This document shows, piece by piece, positions 34,890-51,004 of a stretch of 64,000 nt of DNA. A program made the position numbers and the translations under genes. The notes under the pieces were generated by a model, which saw nothing but the letters and a program-made list of their open reading frames with translations, searched no databases and had not been told where the DNA came from. Source of the DNA: Candidatus Aminicenantes bacterium (GTDB lineage: Bacteria > Acidobacteriota > Aminicenantia > Aminicenantales > Aminicenantaceae); contig JADHWO010000005.1 in NCBI GenBank assembly GCA_016783445.1, forward strand, positions 1,707 to 65,706. The letters run 5' to 3'. Position 1 is the stretch's first letter, and each line of letters begins with the position of its first letter.

Positions 34890-36239
34890 TTACTCTTTTA
34901 ACGCCTCTTCCAGACTCTTTACGAGCCTATCGATCTCTTCTCTTTTAAACATTTCAGTCACACACAAAAGAGAACAATTCTCTAGCTCTGGATAGAATTC
35001 ACGAAGGTACAAGCCACCAAGAATCCCCTTTTCCCTGAGAGAGCTCTCAACTTTGGGCAAGCTTCCCGAAAACTCGATAACAAACTCATTAAAAAAATTG
35101 CCATGGAATTTGCGTTTTATTCCCTCCACCTGGGTTAGTTTTTCCAGGGCATAATTGGCCTTCTGAATATTCTGCCAGGCAAGCTCTTTTAATCCATCCA
35201 GGCCAAGAGTCTCAAGGAAAATGGTAGCTCTCAGCGCACATAAGGCTTGGTTAGTGCATATGTTTGAAGTTGCCCGTTCCCGTCTTATATGTTGTTCCCG
35301 GGTAGATAAAGTAAGAACAAATCCTCTTTTTCCATCCACATCCTTTGTCTCACCAGCAATGCGGCCCGGGAACTGGCGAATAAACTCCTTTAAGCAAGCC
35401 ATAAAGCCCAAATAGGGTCCACCAAAGCTTAGCGGGATGCCAAAAGACTGGCCTTCCCCGGTTACTATATCAGCCCCCAGCTTACCCGGAGCTTCCAGTA
35501 GCCCAAGGGAAACAGGCTCTGTAACCACAACTACGGATAAAGCCTTAGTAGAGTGAGCCAGGTCAGAAATCTTTTTTATATCTTCAACAACTCCTAAAAA
35601 ATTGGGTGACTGACAGACAACAGCTGACGTTCCTTCATCCATCTTACTGCTCAGACTTTCGAAATCTATCTCTCCTGTTTCTGAAAATCCGAACTCTTCA
35701 ATCTTTATATCAAGATTTCTTACGTAAGTCTTAATGGTTTTCCTGTATTGAGGGTGTAGAGTTTTGGCTATCAAGACATTGGATTTTTGTTTCAAGCGAT
35801 GGGCCATCAGCACTGCCTCAGCCGCTGCAGAAGCCCCGTCATAAAGAGAAGCATTTGCCACATCCATGCCTGTCAATAAACAGATGAGAGTCTGAAATTC
35901 AAAAATAGCCTGAAGGGTTCCCTGACTGACCTCAGGCTGGTAGGGAGTATAGGGAGTAACAAATTCTCCTCTTGAGCTTAAATAATCTACAACATAGGGA
36001 ATCACATGGGGATAAGCTCCTGCTCCTAAAAATGAAAGGAATTCTGAATACTTATTCTGTTTTGCAATTTTCTCAAAATGATGAATCAGTTCAATCTCAG
36101 TTAAAGCAGAAGGAACTTTAAGCTCTCTTTTTAACTTCATTCCTTCCGGTATTGTGCGAAAAAGCTCCTCCATAGAAGAGATGCCCACACGTGACATCAT
36201 CTCTTTTTTGTCTTTATCACTCAGAGAAGTATAACTCAC
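34890..36239 (-). CDS. gcvPA: Glycine dehydrogenase (decarboxylating) subunit 1
   Basis: YTPYQPEVSQG, NASLYDG, TREQHIRRERATSNICTNQ. Confidence 0.95.
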   Translation of the reverse strand: MSYTSLSDKDKKEMMSRVGISSMEELFRTIPEGMKLKRELKVPSALTEIELIHHFEKIAKQNKYSEFLSFLGAGAYPHVIPYVVDYLSSRGEFVTPYTPYQPEVSQGTLQAIFEFQTLICLLTGMDVANASLYDGASAAAEAVLMAHRLKQKSNVLIAKTLHPQYRKTIKTYVRNLDIKIEEFGFSETGEIDFESLSSKMDEGTSAVVCQSPNFLGVVEDIKKISDLAHSTKALSVVVVTEPVSLGLLEAPGKLGADIVTGEGQSFGIPLSFGGPYLGFMACLKEFIRQFPGRIAGETKDVDGKRGFVLTLSTREQHIRRERATSNICTNQALCALRATIFLETLGLDGLKELAWQNIQKANYALEKLTQVEGIKRKFHGNFFNEFVIEFSGSLPKVESSLREKGILGGLYLREFYPELENCSLLCVTEMFKREEIDRLVKSLEEALKE

Positions 36240-36286
36240 TGTGTAATTATTCCTTATTCCAAATCAATTCAATTGAGTCAAACAGA

Positions 36287-36673
36287 TTACTCTTCGATTC
36301 CTTCTAAAAATTTCTCATAATCATCCGCTGACATTAACTTTTCAAACTCAGTCTCATCTCCTATCTTGAGACGTATAAACCAGCCTTTCCCATGGGGATC
36401 TTGATTGACAAGCTCGGGGGAATCATTTAAATCAGTGTTCACTTCAATAACTTCTCCGGAAACTGGAGAGTAAATATCAGAAACGGCCTTAACAGATTCA
36501 ATAACGCCTATAGACTGATGAAATTCCAATTGAGTTCCGACTTTCGGCATCTCAACATAAACTACATCTCCAAGCTGTTTTTGAGCAAAATCTGTAATCC
36601 CAACCGTTGCTTTATCCTCCTTCACCTGAATCCACTCATGGTCTTTTGTGTAGTAAAAATCATCCGGATACAT
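36287..36673 (-). CDS. gcvH: Glycine cleavage system H protein
   Basis: HEW, GITDFAQ, lipoyl-Lys motif ESVKAVSD. Confidence 0.95.
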   Translation of the reverse strand: MYPDDFYYTKDHEWIQVKEDKATVGITDFAQKQLGDVVYVEMPKVGTQLEFHQSIGVIESVKAVSDIYSPVSGEVIEVNTDLNDSPELVNQDPHGKGWFIRLKIGDETEFEKLMSADDYEKFLEGIEE

Positions 36674-36691
36674 ATCTTGCCTCCAATTATT

Positions 36692-36785
36692 ATAGGGACT
36701 TGATTGATCAAATCCGCCATCTAATTTGTAGGGGTTTGACTTATTAAACCCGTATTAATGTGCAGGGGCTTGATTTATCAATCCC
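36692..36785 (+). repeat. Second cluster of three REP-like palindromes (same family as 33318-33415)
   Basis: ATAG-GGACTTGAT-TG-ATCAAATCC, GTAG-GGGTTTGAC-TT-ATTAAACCC, GCAG-GGGCTTGAT-TT-ATCAATCCC. Confidence 0.75.
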
Positions 36786-36944
36786 ATTATTACGTGGCTA
36801 CTTTTCAATATAACATGATTATTTGTCAAAACAAGTTGTGAGATTGCCGCGTTCCATCTTGTCACTCGTTATGACATTCAACTAATGCTCCTCGCCATGA
36901 TATTTTTTCATCTTGTCTTTCTATTATTTTGAACTAATTGAGTT

Positions 36945-38033
36945 TTATTCTCCTCTCTTATAAAAAGGCGTAGGAACAACTCGGGCTTTGGCCCTTTTGC
37001 CTCTAATTCCAATCTCAAATTCTGACCCAACTTCAATATATTCAATGGGAAGATAGGTTAGCCCGATACTCTTTTCTAAAGAAGGAGAAAAAGTACCTGA
37101 AGTTACTTCAGATACTTCGCTATTTTCTATAAAGACAGGATAATGAGGTCGGGCTATACCTCTCTCTATAATCTCAAATCCAACAATTTTTCTCTTTATA
37201 CCCTCTTCTTTCTGCTGAAGAAGAGCTTCCCGCCCTAAAAACTCTCCTTTTTCAAACTTCACAAGCCAACCCAGACCTGCTTCCAGGACTGTAGTTGTCT
37301 CATCAATATCATTTCCATAAAGCATAAGTCTGGCTTCTAAACGGAGCGTATCACGAGCGCCCAATCCCACGGGAAGAAGCCCATAGTTTTTTCCTCTTTC
37401 CAAAATGGTTTCCCAAATTTTTTCAGGCTGGGAAGAAAGAGTATAGATCTCAGCTCCATCCTCTCCTGTATAACCTGTGCGTGAGACCAGTACTTCCTCT
37501 CCCTCTATTTTACCCCAACCTGACCCGAATGGACTCATCTCCTTTAAATTAATTTCAATTAGTGGCTGAAGAATTTCCAGAGCTCTGGGACCCTGAATAG
37601 CAAGCTGGGTATAGTCTTCACTCTTGTTTTCCACCTCAACATCAAATCCTTCTCTATGAATAAAAATCCACTCAAAATCCTTATCAGAATTAGAAGCATT
37701 AACCACCAGCAGATATCTCTCAGGATTCAAACAGTAGACCAAAAGGTCATCAATAAAAGTTCCCTGAGGTGTTGTTAAAGCTGAATACTGCGCTTTTTTC
37801 GGCGTCAAACGAGCAGCATCATTGGGAGTCAAATACTGTATAAAATCTAGAGCTTGTCTTCCCCGAATGAGGATTTCTCCCATGTGACTTACATCAAAAA
37901 GCCCGGCTTTCTCGCGGACAGCCAAATGCTCATTTATAATACCGCTAAACTCGACCGGCATCTCCCAGTCGAAAAATTCAATCATTTTACCACCAAGTTT
38001 TTTGTGGGAGGAATTAAGGCGAGTTTTTTTCAC
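36945..38033 (-). CDS. gcvT: Aminomethyltransferase (glycine cleavage T protein)
   Basis: GLFDVSHMGE, SRTGYTGEDG, GLGARDTLRLEA. Confidence 0.95.
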   Translation of the reverse strand: MKKTRLNSSHKKLGGKMIEFFDWEMPVEFSGIINEHLAVREKAGLFDVSHMGEILIRGRQALDFIQYLTPNDAARLTPKKAQYSALTTPQGTFIDDLLVYCLNPERYLLVVNASNSDKDFEWIFIHREGFDVEVENKSEDYTQLAIQGPRALEILQPLIEINLKEMSPFGSGWGKIEGEEVLVSRTGYTGEDGAEIYTLSSQPEKIWETILERGKNYGLLPVGLGARDTLRLEARLMLYGNDIDETTTVLEAGLGWLVKFEKGEFLGREALLQQKEEGIKRKIVGFEIIERGIARPHYPVFIENSEVSEVTSGTFSPSLEKSIGLTYLPIEYIEVGSEFEIGIRGKRAKARVVPTPFYKRGE

Positions 38034-38065
38034 TATCTTTCTTCTTTGAAATTAATTTACTACCA

Positions 38066-38196
38066 TATAATTTTTCCTGATGCAAGAAAAATCGTCTGAA
38101 GCCTTGTTCATACATACAAATCTGCTATAATTAAAAACCAATCATGCTTAAATTAAAAACTTTCTTAAAAGAAAAAATATATAAGAGCTTAAAAAA
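38066..38196 (+). repeat. Left 131-bp direct repeat (argS promoter + first 17 codons)
   Basis: Identical by eye to 48942-49072. Confidence 0.92.
38104..38131 (+). promoter_or_regulatory. Duplicated argS promoter (copy facing the island ATPase)
   Basis: TTGTTC-16 bp-TATAAT with extended TG (TGCTATAAT). Confidence 0.6.
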
Positions 38197-38209
38197 TATT
38201 CTTTTTTGA
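38144..38209 (+). pseudogene. argS 5' fragment (21-codon mini-ORF MLKLKTFLKEKIYKSLKNILF)
   Basis: First 17 codons identical to argS, then 4 unrelated codons and TGA 38207-38209. Confidence 0.75.
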
Positions 38210-39696
38210 GCGAAAATTATATGGAAATTAAAGAAAGAAAAGAATTAGAAGTTGTTGTCGATAAAAGACATGTTGTTTCTATTGGCGAACGCCTCTATAC
38301 AGAAAGCGTTGAGCTACTCAGAGAACTTGTCAACAATGCCTATGATGCAGATGCAACTAAAGTCTATGTTGACATTACACCAGAAAGTATAGTTATCAAA
38401 GATAACGGTTCAGGTATGGATATTGATGGATTAAAACAATATTTCATCATTGGTTCTGATGAAAAAGTCATCCATTCTCGCTCTCCAAAATTCGGAAGAG
38501 CCAGAATAGGACAATTTGGTATCGGAAAATTTGCCTCTCTGGCTGCTGCTTCTCGTTTTGAGGTAATCACTCAAAATAAAAATTTTGCTGCACGAGTTGT
38601 TTTTGACAAAAAAGCCTGGGAGAAAGCCAAAGGCAGATGGTATCTTCCACTAGAAATTCTTGAACCTGAGCTTAAAAGAGGAGACGGGACGACTGTCATT
38701 CTTTCTGAACTTTCTAAATCATTTGCTACTGATGAAGTCGAAAAAAAATTGATAGAAGGCGCTCCTCTTAAAGCCCCTGATTTCACCGTTTATTTGAATA
38801 ATCGTCGTCTCCTGCCAAGAAGCCTAATTGGACAGAGAATCCCTGTTTTAGAAGGTTGTAAATACGGTCTTGTATCAGGTGAGGTTGTTATAACTCCCAG
38901 CTCAATGGCTTCATTAAAAGATCTGGGAATAGATATTAAAGTGAAAGGGGCAACCATAAAAAGGGATCTCTTCGGAATGGAAACTTGGGGAAAGATTGTA
39001 GCCAGAATAAGAGGAGAAATTGGTGTAGATTTTCTTCCCATTACAAGCGACCGCTCCAACTTCGTTACTGATTCAGACGAATACCAAGAATTCCTTAAAA
39101 TTATGAAAAAGATTATAGATATTATTAAAAAAACTTTAGGAAAGGAAGCAGACCGTAGAGAAGACCAAAGAGCCAGCCGCGCAGTTAAAGAAGCCTTAGA
39201 CAGAATCCATAAATCTCTTGCTAAAAATCCAGAATTATCTCCCTTTGGCCCGATTCCTTATGGCGATGAAGAAAGCGTTGGCAGTGGAGCCGTGGCTGAA
39301 AGCACAAAGAGAAAAGGTGAAAATGAATCTGAACTCAGACCGATAATGGAAGGGGTCAAAAAGAAGCCGAAAATAAAAAAGAAACGCCATCCTCTTGTAA
39401 AGAGAATTACTCCTAATGCCATTGTTCGCAGGATGAGGATGGGAGACAGTAGTGTCTCTGTTTGCCTTGATTTTTTTGGTGAATCAGGGCCTGAATGTTT
39501 TTCAGAAGGCAATATTATCTACATCAACCGCGACCATCCTTTATTCAAAAGAGAATCCCGAAAAGCTGTTACTTACACAATGTACATAGCTCGTCTTTTA
39601 ACTCAAGAGATTTCCCTAATGAAAGAAACTCGAAGCCCTCGCCTTGCTTTCAGCCGCCAGAGCAAACTCCTTAAAGACGCTTTTGCTGAAGAATAA
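38206..39696 (+). CDS. GHKL (HATPase_c/MORC-like) ATPase
   Basis: Bergerat motifs ELVNNAYDADA, DNGSGM, GQFGIGK, GTTV. Start is TTG 38206 or ATG 38221. Confidence 0.82.
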   Translation: MSENYMEIKERKELEVVVDKRHVVSIGERLYTESVELLRELVNNAYDADATKVYVDITPESIVIKDNGSGMDIDGLKQYFIIGSDEKVIHSRSPKFGRARIGQFGIGKFASLAAASRFEVITQNKNFAARVVFDKKAWEKAKGRWYLPLEILEPELKRGDGTTVILSELSKSFATDEVEKKLIEGAPLKAPDFTVYLNNRRLLPRSLIGQRIPVLEGCKYGLVSGEVVITPSSMASLKDLGIDIKVKGATIKRDLFGMETWGKIVARIRGEIGVDFLPITSDRSNFVTDSDEYQEFLKIMKKIIDIIKKTLGKEADRREDQRASRAVKEALDRIHKSLAKNPELSPFGPIPYGDEESVGSGAVAESTKRKGENESELRPIMEGVKKKPKIKKKRHPLVKRITPNAIVRRMRMGDSSVSVCLDFFGESGPECFSEGNIIYINRDHPLFKRESRKAVTYTMYIARLLTQEISLMKETRSPRLAFSRQSKLLKDAFAEE

Positions 39697-39710
39697 GAAG
39701 TGAAATGATA

Positions 39711-40433
39711 TTAAAGCTTAAAAATACCGGTATTATTTTTCAACCAATCTCTTCGCTTTTGATAATCGGGTAGTGCAATAGAAACAAGCTTCCAAAAATC
39801 AGCGGAGTGATTTTTAATCTTTAAATGGCACAGCTCATGTACAACTATATAATCGACTATGGAAATCGGAGCCATTGAAATCCGCCAGTTAAATCTTAAT
39901 GTGCCATCTTTCGAACAGCTTGCCCAGCGCTTTTTCTGATCTTTTATTATTACCTCTTTTGGAAACAAATCCATCAGCTTACAATAGCGGTTCACTCTTT
40001 GTTTTACAATCTTAAAAGCCCCTGCGATATACCACTTTGTCAAAACTTCTCTAATTATTTCCTTTCTTTTGTTTGAATCCAGATTTCGATCGACAGATAC
40101 GAATATCCTTCTCCCAAACAATTTCGGGACTCTCGAATTTTCTTCCTCCACTATTTTTAATCGGTACCTTCGGCCCAGCAATAAAATTTGCTCTCCACTT
40201 ACAAACTCTCTTTCAGGAAAAAGCATAACCAATCTTTTGAAATGTTCTTGTTTAGCCATAATCCATCTGGCTTTCTTTTCTACGAATGTCCTGATTTTTT
40301 CACGGCTCAAATGACCTGGAGCCAGCACAATAACCTGGGAAGCAGGAGTTACATTGATTGCCAGAGTTTTTTTGCGATTCCCCCTTTTTATTGTGTATGT
40401 TATGCGTCTGTTGCCAAAGGTAATATGGTCCAT
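39711..40433 (-). CDS. M48/SprT-like (YgjP) zinc metallopeptidase commonly following hsdR
   Basis: KRWASCS, FNWR, YIVVHELCH (HExxH), NHSADFW. Confidence 0.88.
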   Translation of the reverse strand: MDHITFGNRRITYTIKRGNRKKTLAINVTPASQVIVLAPGHLSREKIRTFVEKKARWIMAKQEHFKRLVMLFPEREFVSGEQILLLGRRYRLKIVEEENSRVPKLFGRRIFVSVDRNLDSNKRKEIIREVLTKWYIAGAFKIVKQRVNRYCKLMDLFPKEVIIKDQKKRWASCSKDGTLRFNWRISMAPISIVDYIVVHELCHLKIKNHSADFWKLVSIALPDYQKRRDWLKNNTGIFKL

Positions 40434-40434
40434 T

Positions 40435-43400
40435 CTAATCCTTAAGTCTTGCTCTTGCTAATTCCATAATTTCCCGTGTGAAAAAATCCAGCTTGCGGTC
40501 ATGAAAACCAATTTCTCTCAAACGGTCTTTTATCTCTCTTCGCATCTCTTTTTGAATATCTTCTTTCTCACACCAGTCAATAACTCTTTTGTTTTTTATT
40601 ATTTCAACAATCTCCTTGGTCAAAAGACATCTTTTCTCATCCTTTTCACCAAAAAGTTCATCCCTAAAGGATTCCAATAATCCATAAAAAGCAAATTCAT
40701 CAAGCGTTAATCCTTTCTCTTTAGCAAGAACTTCTCTCCCTTTTTCTTGCTTGCTGAGTATAACCAGGTCTTTAAGCAATTCTGCCTCATCCTTTCTCCT
40801 CTGGCTGTCTTCTTCAATAATTGCCTCGAGTTTCTCCTCTAAGGATTCGTAAAAGTGTGGATCTTCTCCAACTTTTGAATGAATCGTTTCACGTATCGCC
40901 TGTTCAATATGGCTCGCTTTAGCCCTCGTACTCACCTTAATATCCAGTTTTTCTTCAAAATCAGGAGCTGTTATCTCTATAGGTTCCAGGATTTTTTCAA
41001 TTCCAGTATCAACAATGTGAGCATGTATGAGTTTTTCAACCTTTCGGCTGCAATTTTCAAGACTCAATCTTTCATCACGATAAAGATTTCTCGCTCCTTC
41101 GCGGACCATCCCCAGAAATTTGAAATCATCCATAAAAGGCTCAACAGTAGGATCAGGCATTAGCATATCCATGCTCTTCGCAAATTCCCGGAATAAAACC
41201 TCAAATTTAGACCTTACATCTTCAGGTTTAAGGATTTCGAGACAATGCTGGAGTACTTCCGCAGGATTCGCCTCCTGGTCAACAGTTTTGAATAATTGCA
41301 TGGCTTTTTGATGAGTCTCTTCCAATGAGGAAATTTCTCTATGCCAGTCATCCACGCTGAATAAACCAACAAGGTCTTCACTGTCAAAAATCGCCAAAGC
41401 TTTTGCCAGGTCCTTTCCAACACCCACATAATCAACGACCAGCCCGAAATTTTTCCTTGGATAAGGCCTGTTTGTTCTGGCAACAGCCTGAAGCAGAGTA
41501 TGTTCTTTCAATCTCTGGTCAAGATACATAACCTGCTCAATGGGTGCATCAAATCCTGTCAGTAACTTATCACAGACTATTAGAAACTTAAGCGGATTTG
41601 ATGGATTGAGAAACACATCTTTTCCCGTAATCCGGTCTTCTTCCTGGGCTGTACGGCGGTATTTATCCTTCCATTCTTTAGGATCATCATTATTAACAGT
41701 CATGACAACTGTAGACCAGGAAGGATCGATAAGCCTATCCAGCGCCTTCTTATACATGTCCGCTGTTTTTCTTTCTGAAGCCACAATTTGGGCTTTGAAT
41801 CCATTGGGCTCAATTTTCTCCCCATAATGATTCACGATATCTATGGCAATTCGCTCTATTCTCCGCGGAGCGCTTAAGATAGTATCAACTGTTGCATACC
41901 GCCTTTTTATTTCAGCCAGTTCCTTTGTAGTTTTTTCTGGAAAAAGCTCTTTGAGCAGCCTGTCAATCGAAGCTCCCACCACCTGAAGATTGGCAAGCCG
42001 GCTTTCATATTTAATCGGAACAGTGGCTTCATCCTCCAGGGATTGTCGCATATCATACCTGTCCAGATATTTTTTACCGGGAGGACTGAAATGCCGGTAA
42101 GTGTTCCTGTCTCTTTTATCAAGCGGAGTTCCGGTAAAAGCAAAAAAACTTGCATTGGGAAAGGCCTTTCTTAAGTTCAGAGCGTAAAAGCCATACTGTG
42201 TTCTATGCGCCTCGTCCGTCAGAATGATTATGTTTTCAGCCTCGGATAAAGGTTTTGCAAGAAGCTTGCGGAATTTCTGAACGGTCGTCATAACTGTAAT
42301 TCCAATTCCAACGGTCAGCAGGCCGAAGAGTTCTGGGTGAGCCATCATCTCAGCCTGTATAGGATTGGGGAAACCGCAGTTTATAAAAGTTTCATTTATC
42401 TGGCGGTTCAATTTCTTCCTGTCTGTGACAATAAGAATGATGGGGTTTTTTAATTTCTCCTGCTCTCTTCTTAATTCCAATGCAGAAAAAAGCATAATCA
42501 GAGACTTGCCCGATCCCTGCCAGTGCCATATGATCCCTCTTTTATCAGGTCCGCTTTTTACACATCTAACGATTTTATTAACTGCGGAATACTGCTGATA
42601 ACGGCATATTTTTTTTACGACTTTGTGCTCTTCCTTGCTGTAGTCAAAAACAATAAAATTTTGAATAATATCCAGTAGATTTGGCTTTCTTAAAAGCCCG
42701 GCAAGCAAGACTTCCTGCATAGGGGGATGATCGATAATATCTTCTTCATCAATCAACCCCATCTCCAGCATCTCTTTAACTGAGAGATGTTCAGCCATGT
42801 TGGGAAACTTGTTATTACCGGGATCCTTCCACTCATGATAATGTCCTGCTGATACATCAATGCATCCATATTTGGCTCCAAAAAGATTGCAGTCGATGAT
42901 AATCTCGTTTGTTCGAAATAGCTGAGGGATTTCTTCCTGGTAGCGGATGAGTTGTTCCTGGGCTTTTAGAACACCGGTTCGTTTCGCGACCTGGCTTTTA
43001 CATTCAATAACAACCAAGGGAAGACCGTTTATAAAAATAACAATATCCGGCCTGTCTGTCGTTTTATGCTTTCTGACCCAGAATTGATTAACCACTAAGA
43101 ACTCGTTATTCTCGATGTTTTCAAAATCTATGAAATTGACAGTTTGTTTTTGCCGTCTAGCACCAATGTCCTGGTCAACGGAAATGCCGGAAATAATACA
43201 GTTGTGAAAAATTCGGTTAGCTTCAAGCGTGTTTTCAGCTTGAATATGCGTGATTCTCTGGATGGCTTTTATTATAGAATCCTCTGTAAGATGAGGATTA
43301 ATTTTAGCCAATGCCTTTTTGAGACGTTCCTCTAAAATGACATCTCTTCGGGATTTTCGCTCGCAATCATCTTTAAGATCAGGGTCAAACTGGTCCCCAT

Positions 43401-43485
43401 GGATATATTTGTATCCAAGACGCCTTAGCTGCTCAATGGCGGGCTTTTCGGATAATGTGTCTTCGTTGAATTTTTCCCCTGACAT
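40435..43485 (-). CDS. hsdR: Type I restriction enzyme R subunit
   Basis: PDIVIFINGLPLVVIECK nuclease motif, WQGSGKS, DEAH, FTGTP, LLTGFDAP, QAVARTNR. Confidence 0.95.
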   Translation of the reverse strand: MSGEKFNEDTLSEKPAIEQLRRLGYKYIHGDQFDPDLKDDCERKSRRDVILEERLKKALAKINPHLTEDSIIKAIQRITHIQAENTLEANRIFHNCIISGISVDQDIGARRQKQTVNFIDFENIENNEFLVVNQFWVRKHKTTDRPDIVIFINGLPLVVIECKSQVAKRTGVLKAQEQLIRYQEEIPQLFRTNEIIIDCNLFGAKYGCIDVSAGHYHEWKDPGNNKFPNMAEHLSVKEMLEMGLIDEEDIIDHPPMQEVLLAGLLRKPNLLDIIQNFIVFDYSKEEHKVVKKICRYQQYSAVNKIVRCVKSGPDKRGIIWHWQGSGKSLIMLFSALELRREQEKLKNPIILIVTDRKKLNRQINETFINCGFPNPIQAEMMAHPELFGLLTVGIGITVMTTVQKFRKLLAKPLSEAENIIILTDEAHRTQYGFYALNLRKAFPNASFFAFTGTPLDKRDRNTYRHFSPPGKKYLDRYDMRQSLEDEATVPIKYESRLANLQVVGASIDRLLKELFPEKTTKELAEIKRRYATVDTILSAPRRIERIAIDIVNHYGEKIEPNGFKAQIVASERKTADMYKKALDRLIDPSWSTVVMTVNNDDPKEWKDKYRRTAQEEDRITGKDVFLNPSNPLKFLIVCDKLLTGFDAPIEQVMYLDQRLKEHTLLQAVARTNRPYPRKNFGLVVDYVGVGKDLAKALAIFDSEDLVGLFSVDDWHREISSLEETHQKAMQLFKTVDQEANPAEVLQHCLEILKPEDVRSKFEVLFREFAKSMDMLMPDPTVEPFMDDFKFLGMVREGARNLYRDERLSLENCSRKVEKLIHAHIVDTGIEKILEPIEITAPDFEEKLDIKVSTRAKASHIEQAIRETIHSKVGEDPHFYESLEEKLEAIIEEDSQRRKDEAELLKDLVILSKQEKGREVLAKEKGLTLDEFAFYGLLESFRDELFGEKDEKRCLLTKEIVEIIKNKRVIDWCEKEDIQKEMRREIKDRLREIGFHDRKLDFFTREIMELARARLKD

Positions 43486-43498
43486 TCAACCAGTCCCT

Positions 43499-44800
43499 TT
43501 ATATTTTTACCCTGATTTTACCAGTTAACAAAACCTGCATCAAACCTTTCTTTATATTCTCTATTTTTTCTTTTTGCACTATTTCCTTCTCTACTTCTTC
43601 ATCCACAGATTTTAATATCTCTGCAATCTTTTTTTGTTCGGGAAGAGTTGGGAGTGGAACCTTTATTCTTGAAAGTGATGACGCATTAACTCCCCCCTGG
43701 GCACTACCCCCAATCTTCTCCTCTATTTGTTTCCAGTAAATAAAAGAATTAAAAACAAGGTAAAGAAAATTTGGGTTTATTCTTTCTTTGGTTACTACTC
43801 TAATAAGATAGGACGCAAAGACCGCTTCTGGACATTTTTTTATAATGTAACTTTTTCCTGTAGTTGCACCTGTTCTTGCAAATAAAATATCTCCTGACTT
43901 AAGAATGTATTTCTCTTTTATTGAATTCGGACAATTACAAAATGGAACACTTTCCCAGTTCACTCTTCCATCGTGAATATCTGATATTCGTAAAAATTTC
44001 GGTCCAATTGGCTTTTCAGTCGCACTCTCAGTATAACCATATTCAGGCCTTTCACATACATCTTCAACTTTATCAACTTCCCAATCTACAGGAATTTCGC
44101 CTATTTCTGTATTTTTGAATTTTTTATGTCCTATTCCGTGAGTAAGCAATTCCTGCATCAGGCCTTTTTTAAGCATCTTTGTTTTTCCAATGATCTCTTG
44201 CTTTTTGTCAATTGCTTCATCGACAGATAATAAAATTTCCGCAATCCTTTTTTGTTCAGGTAGAGGAGGAATAGGAATTTTCAATTCTCGTATATTCTTT
44301 TTCGATACTTCATTAAAAGTACTACCGCTTCCGAGTCTTTGAATTTCTTTGCGCATATATTTAATTCTATAAAACACAAACCAATTGTAGATTTCATCCC
44401 TACAAATCAAACTCGCAAAACCCTGATTTGTTGCCATCGGTTTTGAATTTATTGCACATTCTCCTATAGTTGCTCGGCTTGTTAGAAGAATACTACCAAC
44501 AGGCAAAATTCTAGCTGCACAATTTGACAATCCTTTCTCAGTAATAGCTTTCTCTGTATCAGAAATAATATTTCCTTTGAGTTTGGTTATATCGGTGGGG
44601 ATTGCCCAATGAATATCACCGTTCCAAAATTCCTTTACAATAGTAGAAGGAGTACTTCCCCCTACAACTTCACAAGTATCCCTAATTTTTGCTACTTCCC
44701 AATCTACAGGAATTTTACCTATTTCTGTTTTTTTGAATTTATATTCGGTTCGTAGACTCTCTACCCGTCCCATCTTTTTCTCTCTATTTCTCTCCACCAA
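43499..44800 (-). CDS. hsdS: Type I R-M specificity subunit
   Basis: Two TRDs, each preceded by TEIGxIPVDWEV and followed by PxLPEQKxIAEIL. Confidence 0.93.
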   Translation of the reverse strand: MVERNREKKMGRVESLRTEYKFKKTEIGKIPVDWEVAKIRDTCEVVGGSTPSTIVKEFWNGDIHWAIPTDITKLKGNIISDTEKAITEKGLSNCAARILPVGSILLTSRATIGECAINSKPMATNQGFASLICRDEIYNWFVFYRIKYMRKEIQRLGSGSTFNEVSKKNIRELKIPIPPLPEQKRIAEILLSVDEAIDKKQEIIGKTKMLKKGLMQELLTHGIGHKKFKNTEIGEIPVDWEVDKVEDVCERPEYGYTESATEKPIGPKFLRISDIHDGRVNWESVPFCNCPNSIKEKYILKSGDILFARTGATTGKSYIIKKCPEAVFASYLIRVVTKERINPNFLYLVFNSFIYWKQIEEKIGGSAQGGVNASSLSRIKVPLPTLPEQKKIAEILKSVDEEVEKEIVQKEKIENIKKGLMQVLLTGKIRVKI

Positions 44801-45830
44801 TTCTTAACACTTTAGCAATAAATTTCTGGAATTCCTCTTCATACATATCTGGGCTTATTCCTTCACCTGGTACAGCAGGCAAATCCAGACCACTCTTTGA
44901 AAATTCAAGGCTTATAGTTTCCATAGCTTCGCGCAGCTTAGAACTTCGCAGATAATCTGAAACAACTTGTTCAACTTCATTTAGGATATCCCTGACTTTA
45001 TTCAATGCAGAAAACAGCGAAATCCAATCAAGCCACACAGGCAATTTTTGTTCATCTGAGTCCGCTCCTAAAAGAAACTCTCCCCATTTTTTTTGAGATA
45101 GCCAGTATTCGATTTTTCGCTTCCCTTTGATTCTGGTCATTACTAATCCAGAATCTGAAAGCTCAATTAAGGCATCCTGCACAGCCCTTACAGAAATTCC
45201 GATTGCGTCAGCCACTTCAGCAGGATGGCCAGCTTCATGAGTAAGAAGATAAAGGATGCATTCTGAGCGGGAACCTATCCCAAAAAGGGCCCTAAGTAAA
45301 AACCGCATATTGTTTCTTGCTGCAACAGATACAGGCCTTGACATTTTTCGTAATGAAAAATTTTCCCGTAAGAATCCATACTTATTAAATGGTTCTGATA
45401 TTTCTCCAGGTCTGGGGAAAAGCTCTCCTTCCCTGGTAGTAAACAGCATTTCTTCCTTAACTCTTGAATCAGATGCTTTCAATCCAGCTAATGCCTGCCA
45501 TTTTCTTCTGTAGGACTTGGCCTCCTGGGATAAAAAATAAGCAACCGCACTCATCAGACGTTGTGTTTTCTCATCTTTACTTTTTACTATCCCCCGAAGG
45601 CGCTGAATATCTATCCATCTTCCATTAACCACCAGCCAATCCAAAATCTCATCAAAAAGACGGGGCTCATATCTACTTATTTCAATCGAGAATAGGAGAA
45701 GAGCTTCAGGATCGATAACCCATTCGTCCTCAGATCTTGCACCACCGGCAACTCCCAAAGAAGACCACTGCCTCCAAAGAAAATTTAAAATATTCTCTAA
45801 GAAAAAATGCTTAAATTCTTTCTGCGACAT
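44784..45830 (-). CDS. Hypothetical protein with central winged HTH (putative antitoxin/regulator)
   Basis: ILYLLTHEAGHPAEVADAIGISVRAVQDALIELSDSGLV is ArsR/MarR-like; overlaps both neighbours. Confidence 0.6.
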   Translation of the reverse strand: MSQKEFKHFFLENILNFLWRQWSSLGVAGGARSEDEWVIDPEALLLFSIEISRYEPRLFDEILDWLVVNGRWIDIQRLRGIVKSKDEKTQRLMSAVAYFLSQEAKSYRRKWQALAGLKASDSRVKEEMLFTTREGELFPRPGEISEPFNKYGFLRENFSLRKMSRPVSVAARNNMRFLLRALFGIGSRSECILYLLTHEAGHPAEVADAIGISVRAVQDALIELSDSGLVMTRIKGKRKIEYWLSQKKWGEFLLGADSDEQKLPVWLDWISLFSALNKVRDILNEVEQVVSDYLRSSKLREAMETISLEFSKSGLDLPAVPGEGISPDMYEEEFQKFIAKVLRIGGEK

Positions 45831-46413
45831 CTTTATATCCTATTTTTGAAAGGAACTCCTTAAGGACTTCTTTATACGGATCCGAAGGATCATGGGTCAT
45901 GCTCCAGCGTGCTGCATCTTCCAGTTCTTGTGCTGAAGGTTGTAGGCTCATTAAGTCGTCAAAATGGACATCAGGCCGGCCTCGATCAACGGCGGCAAAA
46001 AGCTTAAAATGAATCTGGTCATAGCGGCCTAGAAAATGAATGATAAGACTTCTTCCATAAATACGGGTCTCTACTCTCTTCATAAGTCCCTCAGGCAAGC
46101 CAAAATCTAAAACCGATGCATGGTCTGTGTTAAGCCAATTCTCCGGCAGATTAAAATCTCTCTGCACTCTTTTGGCTGCTGCCATAATTGCAGGATTTAG
46201 AGGACTCACTTTTGTTAATAAAGCCGCACCATTTTTATCTCTCTCAACAAACGCAACAACATCCATATCTTTAGTAATACGCTGGACACAGCCGATCACG
46301 TTTAAAGCAGCACCTCCACATACAACCATTTCAATTCGTCCTGTTCCCTCTACATCAAGCTGTTCAGAAAGTGCCATCAGAACAGTTTCTATTTCTTTTT
46401 TCCCTTTAAACAT
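45811..46413 (-). CDS. DUF6036-like nucleotidyltransferase (putative toxin)
   Basis: VVCGGAAL...RITKDMDV pol-beta-superfamily motif, NWLN, KLFAA..R...D..D. Confidence 0.7.
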   Translation of the reverse strand: MFKGKKEIETVLMALSEQLDVEGTGRIEMVVCGGAALNVIGCVQRITKDMDVVAFVERDKNGAALLTKVSPLNPAIMAAAKRVQRDFNLPENWLNTDHASVLDFGLPEGLMKRVETRIYGRSLIIHFLGRYDQIHFKLFAAVDRGRPDVHFDDLMSLQPSAQELEDAARWSMTHDPSDPYKEVLKEFLSKIGYKDVAERI

Positions 46414-46415
46414 GG

Positions 46416-47903
46416 TTATGCCTTAAAATTTAGCTCTCTCAAATAATTAAGAACTTTATCCTCTGTTTTCTTGAATCCTTTCTTTAACTCATTCAATTCA
46501 TTTATGGTTTTCTGGATATCGATTTTTTCCTCTTCTTCTGTAGTATCAATATAACGGGTTATATTAAGATTGAAATCATTTTGCTGAATTTCATTCACAG
46601 ATACAGGACGACAATATTTCTCAATCGTCTGGTATTCTCTGAATGCTAAGACCATCTTTTCAATATCTTCATCCCGTAATTTATTCTGCTTCTTCCCTTC
46701 TTGATAATCACCAGCACCATAAAGAAAGAACACTTTTCCTTTTCTTTCTTTGGACTTATTTTTATTCAAGATGAACAAGCAGGCTGGAATGCCAGTTCCA
46801 TAAAACAATTTTGGCGGCAATCCTATAATAGCTTCAAGCATATCTTCTCCGATTATCCCTCTTCTTATTCTCTCTTCTGCTCCTCCTCGGAACAATGCGC
46901 CATGCGGTAGAACAACTCCGACTTTTCCGTTTGCATGGATAGTAGCAAGCATGTGCTGGACAAAGGCAAAATCGGCATATCCTTTCGGAGGAATGCCGAA
47001 CCGGAATCTACTATAAGGGTCATTCTGAGCATTTTCATATCCCCAATTCTTTAAAGAAAAGGGTGGATTAGCAATGACAGTATCAAATTGCATCAATTTC
47101 CCATGAGATAGCAATTGAGGATCCCGTAAAGTATCGCATCTTTTGATTTGAGCGCTTTTTAAGCCGTGAAGGAGCAGATTCATCTTACAAATCGCCCATG
47201 TTCCTACATTTATTTCATGCCCATAAAGCGAAATATTTTTAGGATTTTGTTTGTTTTCTTTTAAATACTGAACAGATTGAATCAACATGCCGCCTGAGCC
47301 GCAGGCAGGATCACAGATTCTCATCCCCTCTTTTGGATCTAAAATTTTAACTAATAACTCGACAACCTCCTTAGGCGTATAAAATTCTCCTCCTTTTTTC
47401 CCGGCACTTGAAGCGAATTGAGCTATAAGATATTCATAGGCATCACCCAGGATATCCGGCTTTTCTAAATCCCTATTGCCCAGTCTGATTTTAGAGAAAT
47501 GGTTAATCAATTGAGAAAGAATATGATCAGGCAATCTGTCTTTATCATTAAAATCAACAGCAGACAGCACCCCTTCTAAACTTTCTGGATTTTCTTCTTC
47601 CAATAAGTCGTTGGCCTTGTTAATAGCCTCACCAATATTATGTGTTAATGATTTGAGATGATTCCATGCAGCTTTTTTTGGGACAAAAAAATCGTGATAA
47701 TCCCGATCTTCATATGCAATCTTCTTATCGCCGGTTTCTCTTACTATTTTCTCCGCTTCCTCTTTAAAAACATCGGAGATTCTTTTCAAGAAAAGAAGGC
47801 CAAAAATATAATTCTTATAGTCTGCTGCATCAATATGGCCTCTTAAAATATCCGCAGATTTCCAAAGATGGGTTTTTAATACTTCCAAATTAAGTTTTTC
47901 CAT
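46416..47903 (-). CDS. hsdM: Type I R-M N6-adenine methyltransferase M subunit
   Basis: LWKSADILRG, GEFYTP, DPACGSGGML, NPPF, LPHGALFRG. Confidence 0.95.
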   Translation of the reverse strand: MEKLNLEVLKTHLWKSADILRGHIDAADYKNYIFGLLFLKRISDVFKEEAEKIVRETGDKKIAYEDRDYHDFFVPKKAAWNHLKSLTHNIGEAINKANDLLEEENPESLEGVLSAVDFNDKDRLPDHILSQLINHFSKIRLGNRDLEKPDILGDAYEYLIAQFASSAGKKGGEFYTPKEVVELLVKILDPKEGMRICDPACGSGGMLIQSVQYLKENKQNPKNISLYGHEINVGTWAICKMNLLLHGLKSAQIKRCDTLRDPQLLSHGKLMQFDTVIANPPFSLKNWGYENAQNDPYSRFRFGIPPKGYADFAFVQHMLATIHANGKVGVVLPHGALFRGGAEERIRRGIIGEDMLEAIIGLPPKLFYGTGIPACLFILNKNKSKERKGKVFFLYGAGDYQEGKKQNKLRDEDIEKMVLAFREYQTIEKYCRPVSVNEIQQNDFNLNITRYIDTTEEEEKIDIQKTINELNELKKGFKKTEDKVLNYLRELNFKA

Positions 47904-47953
47904 AACCTCAAACCTTTTTGATACTATTCAGCTTATTTATTAAACTCTGTGAA

Positions 47954-47982
47954 AGAATATATAATAAATATATAATTGTCAA
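47954..47982 (-). promoter_or_regulatory. Putative sigma70 promoter of the hsdM operon
   Basis: Minus strand TTGACA-17 bp-TATTCT. Confidence 0.55.
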
Positions 47983-48047
47983 GTATTTTATTTAAATTTA
48001 TAGTTTATCTACAATTATTATAGAGTTAAACTACATAAATTATGAAA

Positions 48048-48758
48048 TTAAACTGTGTCAAATAACCCTTTGCTTTTCAAGCTGATATGTCCTTGAGAAG
48101 TAATTACAATGTGATCTAAGGGAGTTATGTCAACGGCTTTGCATGCTGAAATAAGCCTCTTGGTTATATCAATATCAAACTGGCTTGGTTTCCTGCTTCC
48201 AGAAGGATGATTATGTACAAAAATGACTGCAGTCGCATCTTTATTTATTGCGCTTTTTATTACTTCTCTGGGATAAATGGGAGCTTGATCTACAGTACCT
48301 CTGACAATAGTTTCAACTTCCAAGATTCTATTAGATCTGTCCAAATAAACAACTTTGAAAAACTCTTCTTTTAGATCTCTCATAGATAAAGAAAGATAAT
48401 CCAGAACATCTTTATCATTTTCTATATATTCCTTCCCTGCTATCTTTTCTTTAAGCTGACGTTTAGTGATTTCTATGGCAGCCAAAAGCTGAGCTATTTT
48501 TGCACAACCTAAACCTTTAATTTTCTCCAGATCTGATTTTTTTGCACTCAGCAATCCTCTCAGGCCCCCAAAATACTCTATCAGGTCTCTTGCTAAGGAT
48601 ACTGCATCTTTTCCTTTTGTGCCGGAACACAATAAAATCGCAATCAATCCGGCATCAGAAACATAATCAGGGCCTTTCTCTAAAAACAATTCTCTCGGCC
48701 TCTCATATTTCGGCCAAAATTTTATAGATCTCATTTTCTTTTCCTTTTCGGTAATCAT
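48048..48758 (-). CDS. radC: RadC family JAB-domain protein
   Basis: ERPRE, HhH KIKGLG.AK, YPREV, HNHPSG..PS..D, LDHIV. Confidence 0.92.
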   Translation of the reverse strand: MITEKEKKMRSIKFWPKYERPRELFLEKGPDYVSDAGLIAILLCSGTKGKDAVSLARDLIEYFGGLRGLLSAKKSDLEKIKGLGCAKIAQLLAAIEITKRQLKEKIAGKEYIENDKDVLDYLSLSMRDLKEEFFKVVYLDRSNRILEVETIVRGTVDQAPIYPREVIKSAINKDATAVIFVHNHPSGSRKPSQFDIDITKRLISACKAVDITPLDHIVITSQGHISLKSKGLFDTV

Positions 48759-48941
48759 TATTTACTCTTCAAGAATGACGCCAAAATATAAATAAATTCT
48801 CTTAGGTTTTGAATTGTCCTGTTTTTAATTAGTTCCATATAAGTCTGGAGCATTCAATTGAAATTTTAAATTTAAATAAATTTTGGCGTCGCACGCTGCC
48901 AGGTATTCAGAAAAGATATTTTTTTCAGAGTGCTACTTCAT

Positions 48942-49072
48942 TATAATTTTTCCTGATGCAAGAAAAATCGTCTGAAGCCTTGTTCATACATACAAATCTG
49001 CTATAATTAAAAACCAATCATGCTTAAATTAAAAACTTTCTTAAAAGAAAAAATATATAAGAGCTTAAAAAA
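48942..49072 (+). repeat. Right 131-bp direct repeat, providing the promoter and start of intact argS
   Basis: Identical by eye to 38066-38196. Confidence 0.92.
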
Positions 49073-50957
49073 ACAATATCCTATTGAGCCATCAGAGCTT
49101 GGAATAAGCTACACTCCCCAGCAAAAAATGGGCGACCTGGCCCTGACTTTTCCTTTCCAGCTGGCAAAAAAAATGAAGAGGCAACCAAGGGAACTTGCCC
49201 TGGAAATTTTTCCACATCTTTCCTCCATTGAGGGAGTAAAAAAAGTAGAAACAGCCGGGCCAGGTTATATCAACCTCTTTCTGGACAGAGATAAATTCTT
49301 TTCTAACCAGCTTCATTCAATCGACCAGGCTTCTCTCTCCGCTGAAGAGAAAAAAATCATTATTGAACATACTAATATCAATCCTAACAAAGCTGCACAC
49401 ATAGGCCACCTCAGAAATGCCTGCCTCGGAGATACTCTTGGGCGCTGTCTGAAATATAAAGGAGAGAACGTCGAAATCCAGAATTACATAGATGACACCG
49501 GGGTTCAGGTGGCGGATGTTATTTTTGGCTTTTTGGAAATGGAGAAAAAAAGCCTATCTCAGATTAAGGAAATCAAAGAAAAATTTGATTATTACTGCTG
49601 GGACCTTTATGCAAGCGTCTCTTCCTACCTGGAGAGCCACCCCCAGGCAGAGAAAAGAAAATCAGAAATTCTGAAAAACATCGAAGAGCGGAAAAATCCT
49701 GAATTTGAAATAGCAAATTTTATATCCCGCCAGATTATCAAGGCTCATCTCCAGACCATGCGAAGAATCGGAGTCAGTTATGACCTGCTTCCCTGCGAAA
49801 GCAGCATTCTCCATCTTAAGTTCTGGGAGAAAGCCTTCTCACTTTTAAAAGAGAAAAAAGCTATTTTCCTAGCAGAAGATGGAGTAAACAAAGGCTGCTG
49901 GGTGATGGAGCCTGAGACTGAGTCAGAAAAGGAAAAAATTATAGTCCGATCTGACGGGACTGTCACATATGTTGGAAAGGATATTGCCTATCAACTCTGG
50001 AAATTTGGACTATTGGAAAAAGATTTCTACTATGAACCATTTCTCAAAGAAGACAGTAAAACCATCTGGATAACTTCCTCCGCATCAAAGCAAAAATCTC
50101 CCCCATTTGGAAACGGAAGCCAGGTTTATAATGTCATAGATACGAGGCAGGCTTATCTGCAGAAAATTGTCGTTCAGGGCCTCAGATCCCTGAAATTTCT
50201 TGCCGAGGCCGAAAAATCCATCCATTTCTCTTACGAGATGGTAGGCCTTTCTCCAAAAAGCCTAAAGGAGCTTAATCTAAGTCTCTCAGAAGAAGATAAA
50301 AAAAAGAACTTCCTTGAAGTCTCAGGGAGAAAAGGTTTGGGAGTAAAAGCAGATGATCTGCTGGACAGGCTCGAAGAAAAGGCTCTTGCTGAAGTGGAAA
50401 AAAGAAATCCTCAACTCCCCTCAAAGCTGAAAAAGGAAACTGCTCATAAGATCGCCTGTGGAGCACTCCGCTACTTCATGCTCAAATTCGCCCGAAATTC
50501 CCTTATCGTTTTTGATTTTGAAGAAGCCCTTAGCTTTGAGGGAGAAACCGGCCCTTATCTCCAGTATACCCTGGTCCGGATTAACAGCATCTTCCGCAAA
50601 CTTGAAGAAAGAGAAGGCTTTAAAGAAAAGGATATTCAGGCACTTCTTTCTTCAGGAGAAATTGTTTTAGATGTGCTTTCTGAATCCGAGCAAGCCGATT
50701 TCTGGGACCTTGTTCTCTCTGCATCACAGTGTGAGGAAGAAGTCCTCCACTCTATCCGCTCTCTGGAATTCTCACACCTGGCTAAATTCTCTTTTAACCT
50801 CTGCCAGAAGTTTAACGCGTACTATCATCTTTACTCAATTCTGGCAGAAAAAAATAAAGAAGTGAAAAAGATCCGCATTCTAACCATTTATTACATCAAA
50901 GAAGTTCTAAAGCGCGCCCTCTCTCTTATGGGAATCCCGCAACCAGAATTGATGTAA
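49020..50957 (+). CDS. argS: Arginine--tRNA ligase
   Basis: GPGYIN, EHTNINPNKAAHIGHLRN (HIGH), SGRKG, FEGETGPYLQY, DALR-type C-terminus ending M. Confidence 0.95.
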   Translation: MLKLKTFLKEKIYKSLKKQYPIEPSELGISYTPQQKMGDLALTFPFQLAKKMKRQPRELALEIFPHLSSIEGVKKVETAGPGYINLFLDRDKFFSNQLHSIDQASLSAEEKKIIIEHTNINPNKAAHIGHLRNACLGDTLGRCLKYKGENVEIQNYIDDTGVQVADVIFGFLEMEKKSLSQIKEIKEKFDYYCWDLYASVSSYLESHPQAEKRKSEILKNIEERKNPEFEIANFISRQIIKAHLQTMRRIGVSYDLLPCESSILHLKFWEKAFSLLKEKKAIFLAEDGVNKGCWVMEPETESEKEKIIVRSDGTVTYVGKDIAYQLWKFGLLEKDFYYEPFLKEDSKTIWITSSASKQKSPPFGNGSQVYNVIDTRQAYLQKIVVQGLRSLKFLAEAEKSIHFSYEMVGLSPKSLKELNLSLSEEDKKKNFLEVSGRKGLGVKADDLLDRLEEKALAEVEKRNPQLPSKLKKETAHKIACGALRYFMLKFARNSLIVFDFEEALSFEGETGPYLQYTLVRINSIFRKLEEREGFKEKDIQALLSSGEIVLDVLSESEQADFWDLVLSASQCEEEVLHSIRSLEFSHLAKFSFNLCQKFNAYYHLYSILAEKNKEVKKIRILTIYYIKEVLKRALSLMGIPQPELM

Positions 50958-51004
50958 AAGAGTTAGTATTAAATGAAGCAGATTACGCAGGGATTTGATT
51001 TATT

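Follow-up and report, generated by a model that had tools for sequence, protein, structure and literature searches.

We analyzed a 64,000-nucleotide (nt) stretch of DNA, hereafter called the window, from the genome of an uncultured sediment bacterium, Candidatus Aminicenantes (G000, a 2.89-Mb metagenome-assembled genome in 153 contigs; the window is positions 1707 to 65706 of contig C43). Between the divergent genes gcvT (aminomethyltransferase) and argS (arginyl-tRNA synthetase), the window carries an island with a Type I restriction-modification (R-M) module, flanked by a perfect 131-nt duplication of the argS 5' end and the DNA just upstream of it. We found that this site is precisely empty in other strains and that the same island occupies the same site in two other genera. 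At a probability of about 70%, we propose that this is an integrase-free accessory island that entered once with a long target duplication and has since been maintained, exchanged, and precisely deleted by homologous recombination.

The two repeat copies are identical at 131/131 positions, as read from the sequence. They start 10,876 nt apart, with 10,745 nt between them, and a repeat finder reports a slightly longer pair (38058 to 38196 and 48934 to 49072; 139 nt, 136/139 or 98% identical). The 131-nt sequence occurs only twice in the whole assembly, which bears out the perfect duplication described in a first-pass annotation of this DNA, and a perfect match of this length cannot be due to chance. 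An exact scan of metagenome contigs with a 42-nt piece of the repeat gave 0 matches, in a collection that may lack the records of the window's own genome.

Each copy comprises 78 nt 5' of the argS ATG followed by the first 53 nt of argS. The argS ATG is at 49020 and its duplicate is at 38144. The gcvT start (38033) and the left copy are separated by 32 nt, and together with the duplicated ATG this means that the left copy re-creates a 110-nt divergent spacer. Deleting the interior and one copy likewise leaves a gcvT/argS spacer of 110 nt, equal in length to that of the closest relative, G007. The duplicated ATG opens a short argS stub that ends 11 nt ahead of a GHKL-type ATPase gene, and comparable short stubs precede the GHKL gene in two other island loci, L024 and L065. 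Within the repeat, TTGTYC, a 16-nt gap, and a TATAAT ending 12 nt 5' of the ATG are conserved in 10/10 aligned sequences and probably constitute the argS promoter. A consensus promoter scan did not list this presumed promoter, whose first hexamer matches at 3/6 positions only, so the call rests on conservation. Because the TATAAT ends just 12 nt before the ATG, the argS leader may be very short or lacking. As the first-pass annotation had proposed, the duplication keeps a start and a presumably intact promoter before argS. The -10 region and the first argS codons also form an imperfect 22-nt tandem pair (85%; 38119 to 38160 and 48995 to 49036).

We compared the locus in a sample of 96 genomes of the family, 81 of which have the starts of both gcvT and argS on one contig and could be assessed. 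The two genes are divergent in 81/81. The spacer is 101 to 903 nt in 79 of the 81 and reaches about 10.9 kb only in G000 and G092. Among the first 11 loci from relatives, gcvT and argS were directly divergent in 10. The ancestral state of the junction is empty, and the proposed insertion into a conserved divergent junction agrees with all of these counts. G062 could not be counted, as its contig breaks off after 54 codons of gcvT, though its locus L025 (contig C184) carries the island. Both of the other island-bearing genomes have empty-site relatives in their own genera: G007, G089, G090, and G093 for G092 (dS, synonymous divergence by Nei-Gojobori, of 0.21 to 0.23 to G007) and G009 for G062 (dS of about 0.1). 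In the eleventh of those first loci, that of G031, the spacer holds one gene for a 389-amino-acid (aa) AAA_14/DUF4143 ATPase without a flanking duplication (L094, contig C46, 122 to 1840), which means that the spot accepts alternative cargo. A comparison of related genomes for other cargo with the same duplication had been suggested in the first-pass annotation. The duplication-flanked island did turn up in two other genera, and the alternative cargo of G031 came without the duplication.

Empty and filled alleles are also found in sequencing runs. Part of the region 37000 to 39500 is contained in 20 public runs from 11 studies, and we compared the Logan contigs of four of them (X1, X7, X9, and X10) with the window over 36000 to 51000. 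In X7 (depth, 24.4) and X10 (depth, 6.9), one contig each joins 38065 to 48942, which is the predicted empty site with one repeat copy. These joins skip exactly 10,876 nt, and the 131 nt fit either side. Island DNA is present in both runs at low depth only. In X1, a possible source run of the window, the island (depth, 20 to 28) and its flanks (22.6 to 27.7) are equally deep, and so are they in X9, a run from another study (about 10 to 13). No empty-site contig is listed for X1 or X9. The X1 contigs end 30 nt inside the repeat (38095, 38167, and 49043) because the repeat exceeds the 31-letter word of these contigs. A search of the sequencing data for the empty site had been suggested at the outset; its exact recovery in two runs from two studies shows that the island is gained or lost in nature, as supposed.

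Outside hsdS, the X9 island pieces differ from the window at 2/1,530, 1/1,070, and 4/1,598 positions (7/4,198 together); in hsdS, 22/1,385 positions differ. The X9 argS differs at 24/1,050 and 11/1,025 positions (35/2,075). We also found that the X9 flanks carry most of the listed variants of the empty-site strains in X7 and X10. Thus, chromosomes that are very much alike differ in whether they carry the island, which is younger than its chromosomal surroundings. The radC part is poorly covered in X7 and X9, and X10 has a loose contig end before 38230.

Loci related to the island were gathered from species-representative genomes and metagenome contigs with its winged helix-turn-helix (wHTH) protein as the query. 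L024 (contig C1 of G092, 78.7 kb) has the order argS, repeat, radC, hsdM, nucleotidyltransferase (NTase), wHTH, hsdS, hsdR, YgjP-like gene, GHKL, repeat, gcvT, and its 104-nt repeats are 94% identical. L065 (29 kb) is arranged in the same way, with 104-nt repeats of 95% identity, and in L063 only the argS-side junction is visible. In L025, the island has no GHKL gene and is directly flanked by 93-nt repeats (97%). Alignment with the empty sites of G007, G024, G022, and G004 places the end of the duplication at argS codon 17/18 in all three genera, and its upstream end is identical in G000 and G092. Both G062 junctions resemble microhomology deletions of the longer form, one at AAGAATA, between the stub end and the last GHKL codons, and the other at TTGTCC, which would link the radC upstream region to the -35 box. 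Because the boundaries are shared and the G062 junctions can be derived from the longer form, one duplication-forming event most likely underlies all three genera. It is an old event, since the argS-internal boundary recurs in the two other genera with repeats of their own. The earlier view of a recent insertion is therefore not supported. An old event combined with 131/131 identity in G000 points to homogenization or re-integration.

These loci also bear on whether the layout is real. An assembler could have threaded a separate molecule, or the DNA of another strain, through a single 131-nt sequence, an objection raised in the first-pass annotation itself. The fragmented, metagenome-assembled nature of G000, the presence of empty-site strains in nature, and the inability of short-word contigs to resolve the repeat all fit such an error. 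Against it, L024, L065, and L025 each span the two junctions in a single contig, with repeats too diverged to be collapsed; island depth equals flank depth in X1 and X9, where no empty-site contig is listed; and the Pfam matches of the island include no replication genes for existence as a plasmid. Since the two-junction layout was assembled independently with imperfect repeats and the X1 depth is equal, an artefact is very unlikely.

The diverged repeats allowed us to look for past exchange between copies. In G092 and L065, both copies of one genome share genome-specific variants at 2 positions. The gcvT-side copy of G092 is native (G007-like) at its 5' end and island-like at its stub end; the argS-side copy has a non-native 5' end and a native coding part. 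This pattern appears to be the trace of reciprocal crossovers or conversion within the repeat. The inferred crossover intervals, -33 to +20 from the ATG in G092 and +21 to +51 in G062, do not overlap; they are drawn from few variable sites, and that of G062 rests on 2 synonymous sites.

We next consider what could have moved the island. The first-pass annotation had noted that the interior has no recombinase or transposase, and our searches agree. We found no PF00589 or PF00239 match on the window's contig, and 8/8 island open reading frames (ORFs) of ≥200 aa have non-mobility assignments, in a scan in which transposase families were not searched singly and ORFs of <60 aa were not examined. 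On either side of the gcvT-argS block (about 18 kb on the left and 13 kb on the right), the 22 neighboring ORFs scanned are all housekeeping (pyruvate:ferredoxin oxidoreductase, heterodisulfide-reductase-like genes, glyQS, glycine cleavage, and ABC transporters). No recombinase gene lies in or beside the assembled island copies (the window, L024, L065, L025, and part of L063). With no recombinase in or beside it, the element does not fit an integrase-mediated island, a prophage, or an integrative mobilizable element, unless a helper acts in trans. It does not fit a composite transposon or a cassette borne by insertion sequences (IS) either: no IS or transposase gene was found in the scan just described, and the short imperfect inverted pairs that occur are not at the island ends. 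Module ends compared across contexts have no terminal motif in common.

The proposed search of the genome for an orphan integrase did return candidates, all on other contigs: 7 PF00589 matches and 1 large serine recombinase (PF00239, on C137). A tyrosine or serine recombinase encoded elsewhere or on a helper could use the argS promoter/5' region as an attB, with the repeats as attL and attR of a nonautonomous integrative element. The candidates just named, the same site and the same argS-internal boundary in three genera, and the hybrid G092 repeat copies, which reciprocal att recombination would be expected to yield, are in keeping with this. The lack of a recombinase gene in or beside any of the five island copies is not, and neither are the unequal repeat lengths (131, 104, and 93 nt), the nonoverlapping crossover intervals of G092 and G062, the latter with its 2 synonymous sites only, or the presence of the same module with a different long duplication in L073 and with none in G020. 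Nor does the genome hold a sister element with the same att, since it contains no further copy of the repeat sequence. We conclude that a recombinase acting in trans is unlikely.

To follow the module beyond this site, we examined its other copies. The order radC-hsdM-NTase-wHTH-hsdS-hsdR-YgjP recurs at 55 to 90% aa identity in many loci, also from other phyla; these include contigs with record titles naming Aminicenantes, Spirochaetales, and Omnitrophota, along with numerous metagenome contigs that have no title. radC is directly 5' of hsdM in 16 loci (L023 to L028, L063, L065, L069, L071 to L073, L077, L082, L084, and L085) and is not at that place in at least L029, L068, L074, L075, L088, and L089. 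Across contexts, homology stops 13 to 25 nt beyond the YgjP stop and 46 to 61 nt upstream of the radC start. One copy is in G020, a member of a fourth genus (L023, contig C59, 7024 to 16100), and matches the window at 93.7 to 96.1% nt identity over 39698 to 43639 and 44694 to 48804 (blastn). It lies away from gcvT/argS, which is empty in G020, beside BNR/Sortilin-like and RACo-like genes. C59 ends 38 nt beyond the module and continues in C71 via a 55-nt overlap. In L073, a distant module (67 to 80% aa identity) has its own 104-nt direct repeat (90%; 266 to 369 and 9582 to 9685), a second copy of the 3' end of a gene (395 aa) that matches no Pfam family. This makes L073 a separate case of long target duplication within the module family. 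hsdS is 46 to 66% identical in aa between islands whose neighboring genes are 75 to 97% identical, which is the usual swapping of recognition domains.

Divergence of the module was then compared with that of its surroundings. Between G000 and G092, dS is 1.07 for gcvT, 1.57 for argS, and 0.97 for GHKL, against 0.42 to 0.62 for the seven module genes. Between G000 and G062, it is 1.20 for argS (144 codons) and 0.81 for gcvT (51 codons), against 0.34 to 0.58 for the module, with hsdS at 1.20. Between G000 and G020, the flanks are saturated (proportion of synonymous differences, pS, 0.80 to 0.82), and dS is 0.05 to 0.16 for YgjP, hsdR, wHTH, NTase, and hsdM and 0.59 for radC. The low dS of the R-M genes relative to the flanks means that the R-M module moved between genera well after their split. 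The G020 radC is far more diverged than the other module genes, and the module is thus itself a recombinant mosaic. GHKL may have occupied the gcvT/argS site for far longer than the R-M genes.

Such movement raises a second possibility, in which recombination between the repeats frees a circle, or a linear repeat-island-repeat fragment is taken up, and the DNA re-enters related genomes by a Campbell-type crossover in the argS segment. Occupancy of the site in three genera would then stem from repeated invasions across lineages instead of one old insertion. The 131-nt argS promoter segment would then be a portable, recombinase-free attachment site: the island would be released with one copy and would enter other species by a single homologous crossover. 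The segment core is near-invariant across genera, in stretches long enough for homologous pairing, and released DNA would thus be able to re-enter the same spot in other species. The dS values are also as expected (0.34 to 0.62 for R-M genes between genera with flanking genes at 0.81 to 1.57), as are the empty-site relatives of island bearers at dS of 0.1 to 0.2 and the X9 island, which is about 10 times closer to that of the window than the X9 flanks are. In G092, the sequence becomes native again within the repeat at either side, and the stub 3' end is closer to the window argS (15/21) than to its own argS (10/21), as counted by eye. Other observations point away from repeated invasion. With a dS of 0.97, GHKL has diverged to the same extent as the flanks, in keeping with a long stay at the site; all bearers fall in one clade, which is compatible with one gain plus losses; and ordinary double crossovers that swap the R-M genes alone would give the same low dS. 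We regard a portable attachment site as a tentative possibility, considerably less probable than single entry followed by homologous exchange.

Under the single-entry account that we favor, the island would have entered the divergent gcvT/argS spacer once, leaving the argS promoter and first 53 nt on both sides. It may have come in through staggered breaks filled by repair synthesis or through one homologous and one illegitimate end. Thereafter, a clade of related genera would have stayed polymorphic for its presence or absence. Gene conversion between the repeat copies would keep them alike, here to the last nucleotide, and homologous recombination between them would remove the island precisely and restore the empty site of other strains. 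Recombination in the repeats and flanks would swap or re-install island alleles between lineages at the same locus. Neither upkeep nor loss would need an element-encoded recombinase. The right copy would supply the argS promoter and keep argS expressed. The left copy would aim a promoter and a 21-codon stub at GHKL, and this captured promoter probably transcribes both. We infer this mechanism of keeping and losing the island because recombination between or within the repeats, already suggested in the first-pass annotation, is the most economical account of gain and loss.

Several points weigh against this account. No contig bridges the 131-nt repeat in X1, the likely source run, so that linkage there comes from equal depth and from other assemblies, and contigs built from 31-letter words cannot show circle or tandem junctions. 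Direct repeats do not flank the G020 module in the joined C59/C71, and no duplication was found in L074, L075, L077, L085, L088, L089, or L028, where some flanks are only about 500 nt long. G020 and these seven contexts indicate that the module does not always leave a duplication. Drift in unconstrained copy halves could mimic part of the hybrid pattern in the repeats. A tree of gcvT plus argS (17 rows, those with loci in hand; the G062 row has 19% of its columns filled) places G000, G010, G062 with G009, and G007 with G092 and L065 in one clade (Shimodaira-Hasegawa-like approximate likelihood ratio support, 95) and requires at least three island gains or losses either way. These comparisons, which rest on metagenome-assembled genomes, do not distinguish old vertical inheritance followed by repeated loss from repeated transfer into this one site.

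The features of the island are listed in Table 1. Genes were called from Pfam, PADLOC, and NCBIfam, and the content named in the first-pass annotation is right by Pfam and PADLOC, its M48 gene being the YgjP-like metallopeptidase. The G+C content of the island is not distinct from that of its surroundings.

Table 1. Features of the island and its flanks (window coordinates)
Feature	Position	Strand	Evidence
gcvT, aminomethyltransferase, left flanking core gene	36945..38033	-	Pfam GCV_T (8.6e-91), GCV_T_C
Left repeat copy: 78 nt of gcvT/argS spacer and 53 nt of argS 5' end	38066..38196	+	Aligns with the single copy at empty sites of relatives
argS stub ORF: 17 argS codons, 4 foreign codons, and stop	38144..38209	+	Sequence reading
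GHKL-type ATPase gene, 491 aa, solitary, outside the R-M module	38221..39696	+	Pfam HATPase_c_3 (6.6e-18)
Type I R-M module of seven genes, radC-hsdM-NTase-wHTH-hsdS-hsdR-YgjP	39698..48804	-	Ends are the limits of homology to L023/G020
YgjP-like metallopeptidase gene	39711..40433	-	Pfam YgjP-like (3.7e-59)
hsdR, Type I restriction subunit, 1016 aa, intact	40435..43485	-	Pfam HSDR_N, SWI2_SNF2, T1RH-like_C; PADLOC REase_I (4.5e-161)
hsdS, two target-recognition domains	43499..44800	-	Pfam Methylase_S, two stretches; PADLOC Specificity_I (2.9e-104)
wHTH protein gene, NTase partner, inside the R-M operon	44784..45830	-	Weak matches to Pfam TrmB and PADLOC Csa3 wHTH
DUF6036 NTase gene	45811..46413	-	Pfam DUF6036 (9.6e-07)
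hsdM, Type I methyltransferase subunit	46416..47903	-	Pfam N6_Mtase (3.5e-111), HsdM_N; PADLOC MTase_I (1.4e-166)
radC, first module gene	48048..48758	-	Pfam RadC (4.6e-41), UPF0758_N; NCBIfam RadC above cutoff
Spacer between module and right repeat, 137 nt	48805..48941		Common to G092/L065/L063; absent from G062 and G020
Right repeat copy, with presumed working argS promoter and start	48942..49072	+	Identity to left copy
argS, arginyl-tRNA synthetase, 645 aa, intact, right flanking core gene	49020..50957	+	Pfam Arg_tRNA_synt_N, tRNA-synt_1d, DALR_1

HsdR, HsdM, and HsdS give full-length matches, have the corresponding Pfam domains, and are encoded together, as in a Type I R-M system; activity of the system is putative. 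The YgjP-like gene follows hsdR in the module copies that reach that end. A second radC of the genome is on contig C96. Where a locus covers that side, the wHTH gene in most cases adjoins the NTase gene, whether or not R-M genes are present; no NTase match was found beside it in L031 and L068. In L033 to L037 (Opitutaceae-type genomes), the NTase-wHTH pair occurs without detectable R-M genes, with three copies in one genome (L034 to L036). This suggests that NTase and wHTH form a self-standing two-gene module, and its role may be toxin-antitoxin-like.

The GHKL gene stands apart. Its protein scores 98.4 bits against the BbrUII/HgiDII family, which has a cutoff of 550, and only residues 14 to 174, the ATPase domain, match (NCBIfam). 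We rejected assignment to this family of restriction enzymes because the protein fails the cutoff and has no full-length match. In 8/8 related loci, GHKL homologues have no R-M neighbors and lie mostly in housekeeping contexts, beside F420, PutA, SOD, racemase, or toxin-antitoxin-like genes. The versions of the island or module in G062 and G020 lack it. Membership of GHKL in the R-M module or in a defense system was thus unsupported. The "defense island" of the first-pass annotation stands for the Type I R-M operon and does not hold for GHKL, which is solitary in unrelated contexts; radC is simply part of the R-M module.

Several smaller features were seen in and around these elements. hsdS contains an internal 72-nt repeat (82%; 44051 to 44122 and 44669 to 44740) of the usual type, able to shuffle recognition domains. 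In the metagenome contig L064 (2300 to 2470), an hsdR start (95% to 43443 to 43529) is fused to an internal piece of GHKL (96% to 39399 to 39449) and then to unrelated DNA; L064 is a deletion or rearrangement variant of the island. A 22-nt inverted repeat (48777 to 48798 and 48869 to 48890; 86% complementary, 70 nt apart) spans the radC-side module end and the 137-nt spacer, and its right arm (48869 to 48890) is conserved in G092. We ruled out the 137-nt spacer as a decayed older repeat copy, since its local alignment was no better than those of shuffles (183/300 as good). Between gcvH and gcvT, hairpin repeats of about 34 to 39 nt that resemble repetitive extragenic palindromic (REP) elements (core GGGCTTGAT..ATCAAGCCC) lie at 36694 to 36785. 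Arrays of the same family lie just outside both argS and gcvT in L024 (4722 to 4835 and 18900 to 19127), and the copy number of these repeats varies among the contigs of the runs (joints and inserted letters at 36725 to 36876).

R-M insertions of this kind have been described. Furuta, Abe, and Kobayashi (2010, NAR 38:2428, PMC2853133), following Nobusato et al. (2000, Gene 259:99), recognize an "insertion with long target duplication" by restriction and modification genes inside, an insert of <20 kb, a duplication of >30 bp, and no other mobile element, and they report the class for Types I to IV in several phyla. In G000, hsdR, hsdS, and hsdM are intact, the insert is 10,745 nt long, and the duplication (131/131) is a single copy at the empty sites of X7, X10, G007, and other relatives. 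No mobile element or multicopy repeat accompanies it: the contig lacks PF00589 and PF00239, the neighbors are housekeeping, and the repeat occurs only twice. With all of these features, the island is a further case of the described class, which it resembles in having a direct repeat of >30 bp that is unique in the genome and no integrase or transposase, in a class that includes Type I systems. The first-pass annotation had treated the arrangement as unusual in type, and this does not stand.

In one Haemophilus influenzae case of Furuta et al., a regulator gene and a gene for an ATP-binding protein break up a Type I operon, much as the wHTH and NTase genes do here. The target in our case is a promoter and the 5' end of an essential gene, whereas two of their H. 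influenzae examples overlap gene 3' ends; the supplement to that paper may hold 5'-end cases. Our case also differs in that the same island is conserved at one site in three genera with signs of concerted repeat evolution, empty and filled alleles occur in natural populations, and a non-R-M passenger (GHKL) is aboard. By the statement of Furuta et al., there is no experimental evidence for release and re-infection (PMC2853133). None of the listed papers since 2014 that use the phrase "long target duplication" offers a mechanism, by title or abstract start, and no literature on R-M systems in Aminicenantes was on topic, judged by titles and abstracts.

Integrase-bearing islands and integrative and conjugative elements can also insert at a gene's 5' end and provide it with a new promoter and start, as SXT/R391 does in prfC. 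Elements of the SXT/R391 type carry a tyrosine recombinase gene and recombine at a short att core. Our island likewise entered at the 5' end of an essential translation-related gene whose expression is kept by sequence placed upstream, but it has no recombinase, and the promoter before argS is a copy of the host's own. In integrase-free hotspots, accessory or defense genes between core genes are turned over by homologous recombination in the flanks. The island resembles these in its fixed place between two core genes, its presence/absence polymorphism, the alternative cargo of G031, and the horizontal exchange of its R-M genes. Hotspots need no direct repeats, whereas here a long target duplication is constant in the island and offers a route of precise loss. 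Type I R-M operons are also known with accessory genes, toxin-antitoxin-like or abortive-infection, embedded between hsdM and hsdS/hsdR. The order hsdM, two-gene insert, hsdS, hsdR and the variable hsdS are like these; the insert here differs in being a DUF6036 NTase and a wHTH gene of putative role, and radC and the YgjP-like gene are fixed module ends.

How R-M systems move without recombinases and how long target duplications originate have been open questions since 2000. This case adds a target made up of a promoter and a gene 5' end, an island that is conserved in three genera and has recombining repeats, empty sites in populations, and a second, independent duplication in the same module family. 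It provides an unusually complete natural series: filled and empty alleles in one species, three genera with 131-, 104-, and 93-nt repeats, a nearly identical module that sits at a second site with no duplication, and a distant module with an independent duplication. The series could help in mapping crossover points and in asking whether the repeats act as homology-based attachment sites. For annotation, perfect long repeats around defense genes need not imply a recent event or a missing integrase. For the host, the promoter of an essential aminoacyl-tRNA synthetase gene can be duplicated, with one copy apparently captured by a passenger gene. If the argS segment does serve as a portable attachment site, it would be natural evidence for "release and re-invade," a step of Kobayashi's proposed R-M life cycle (PMC2853133).

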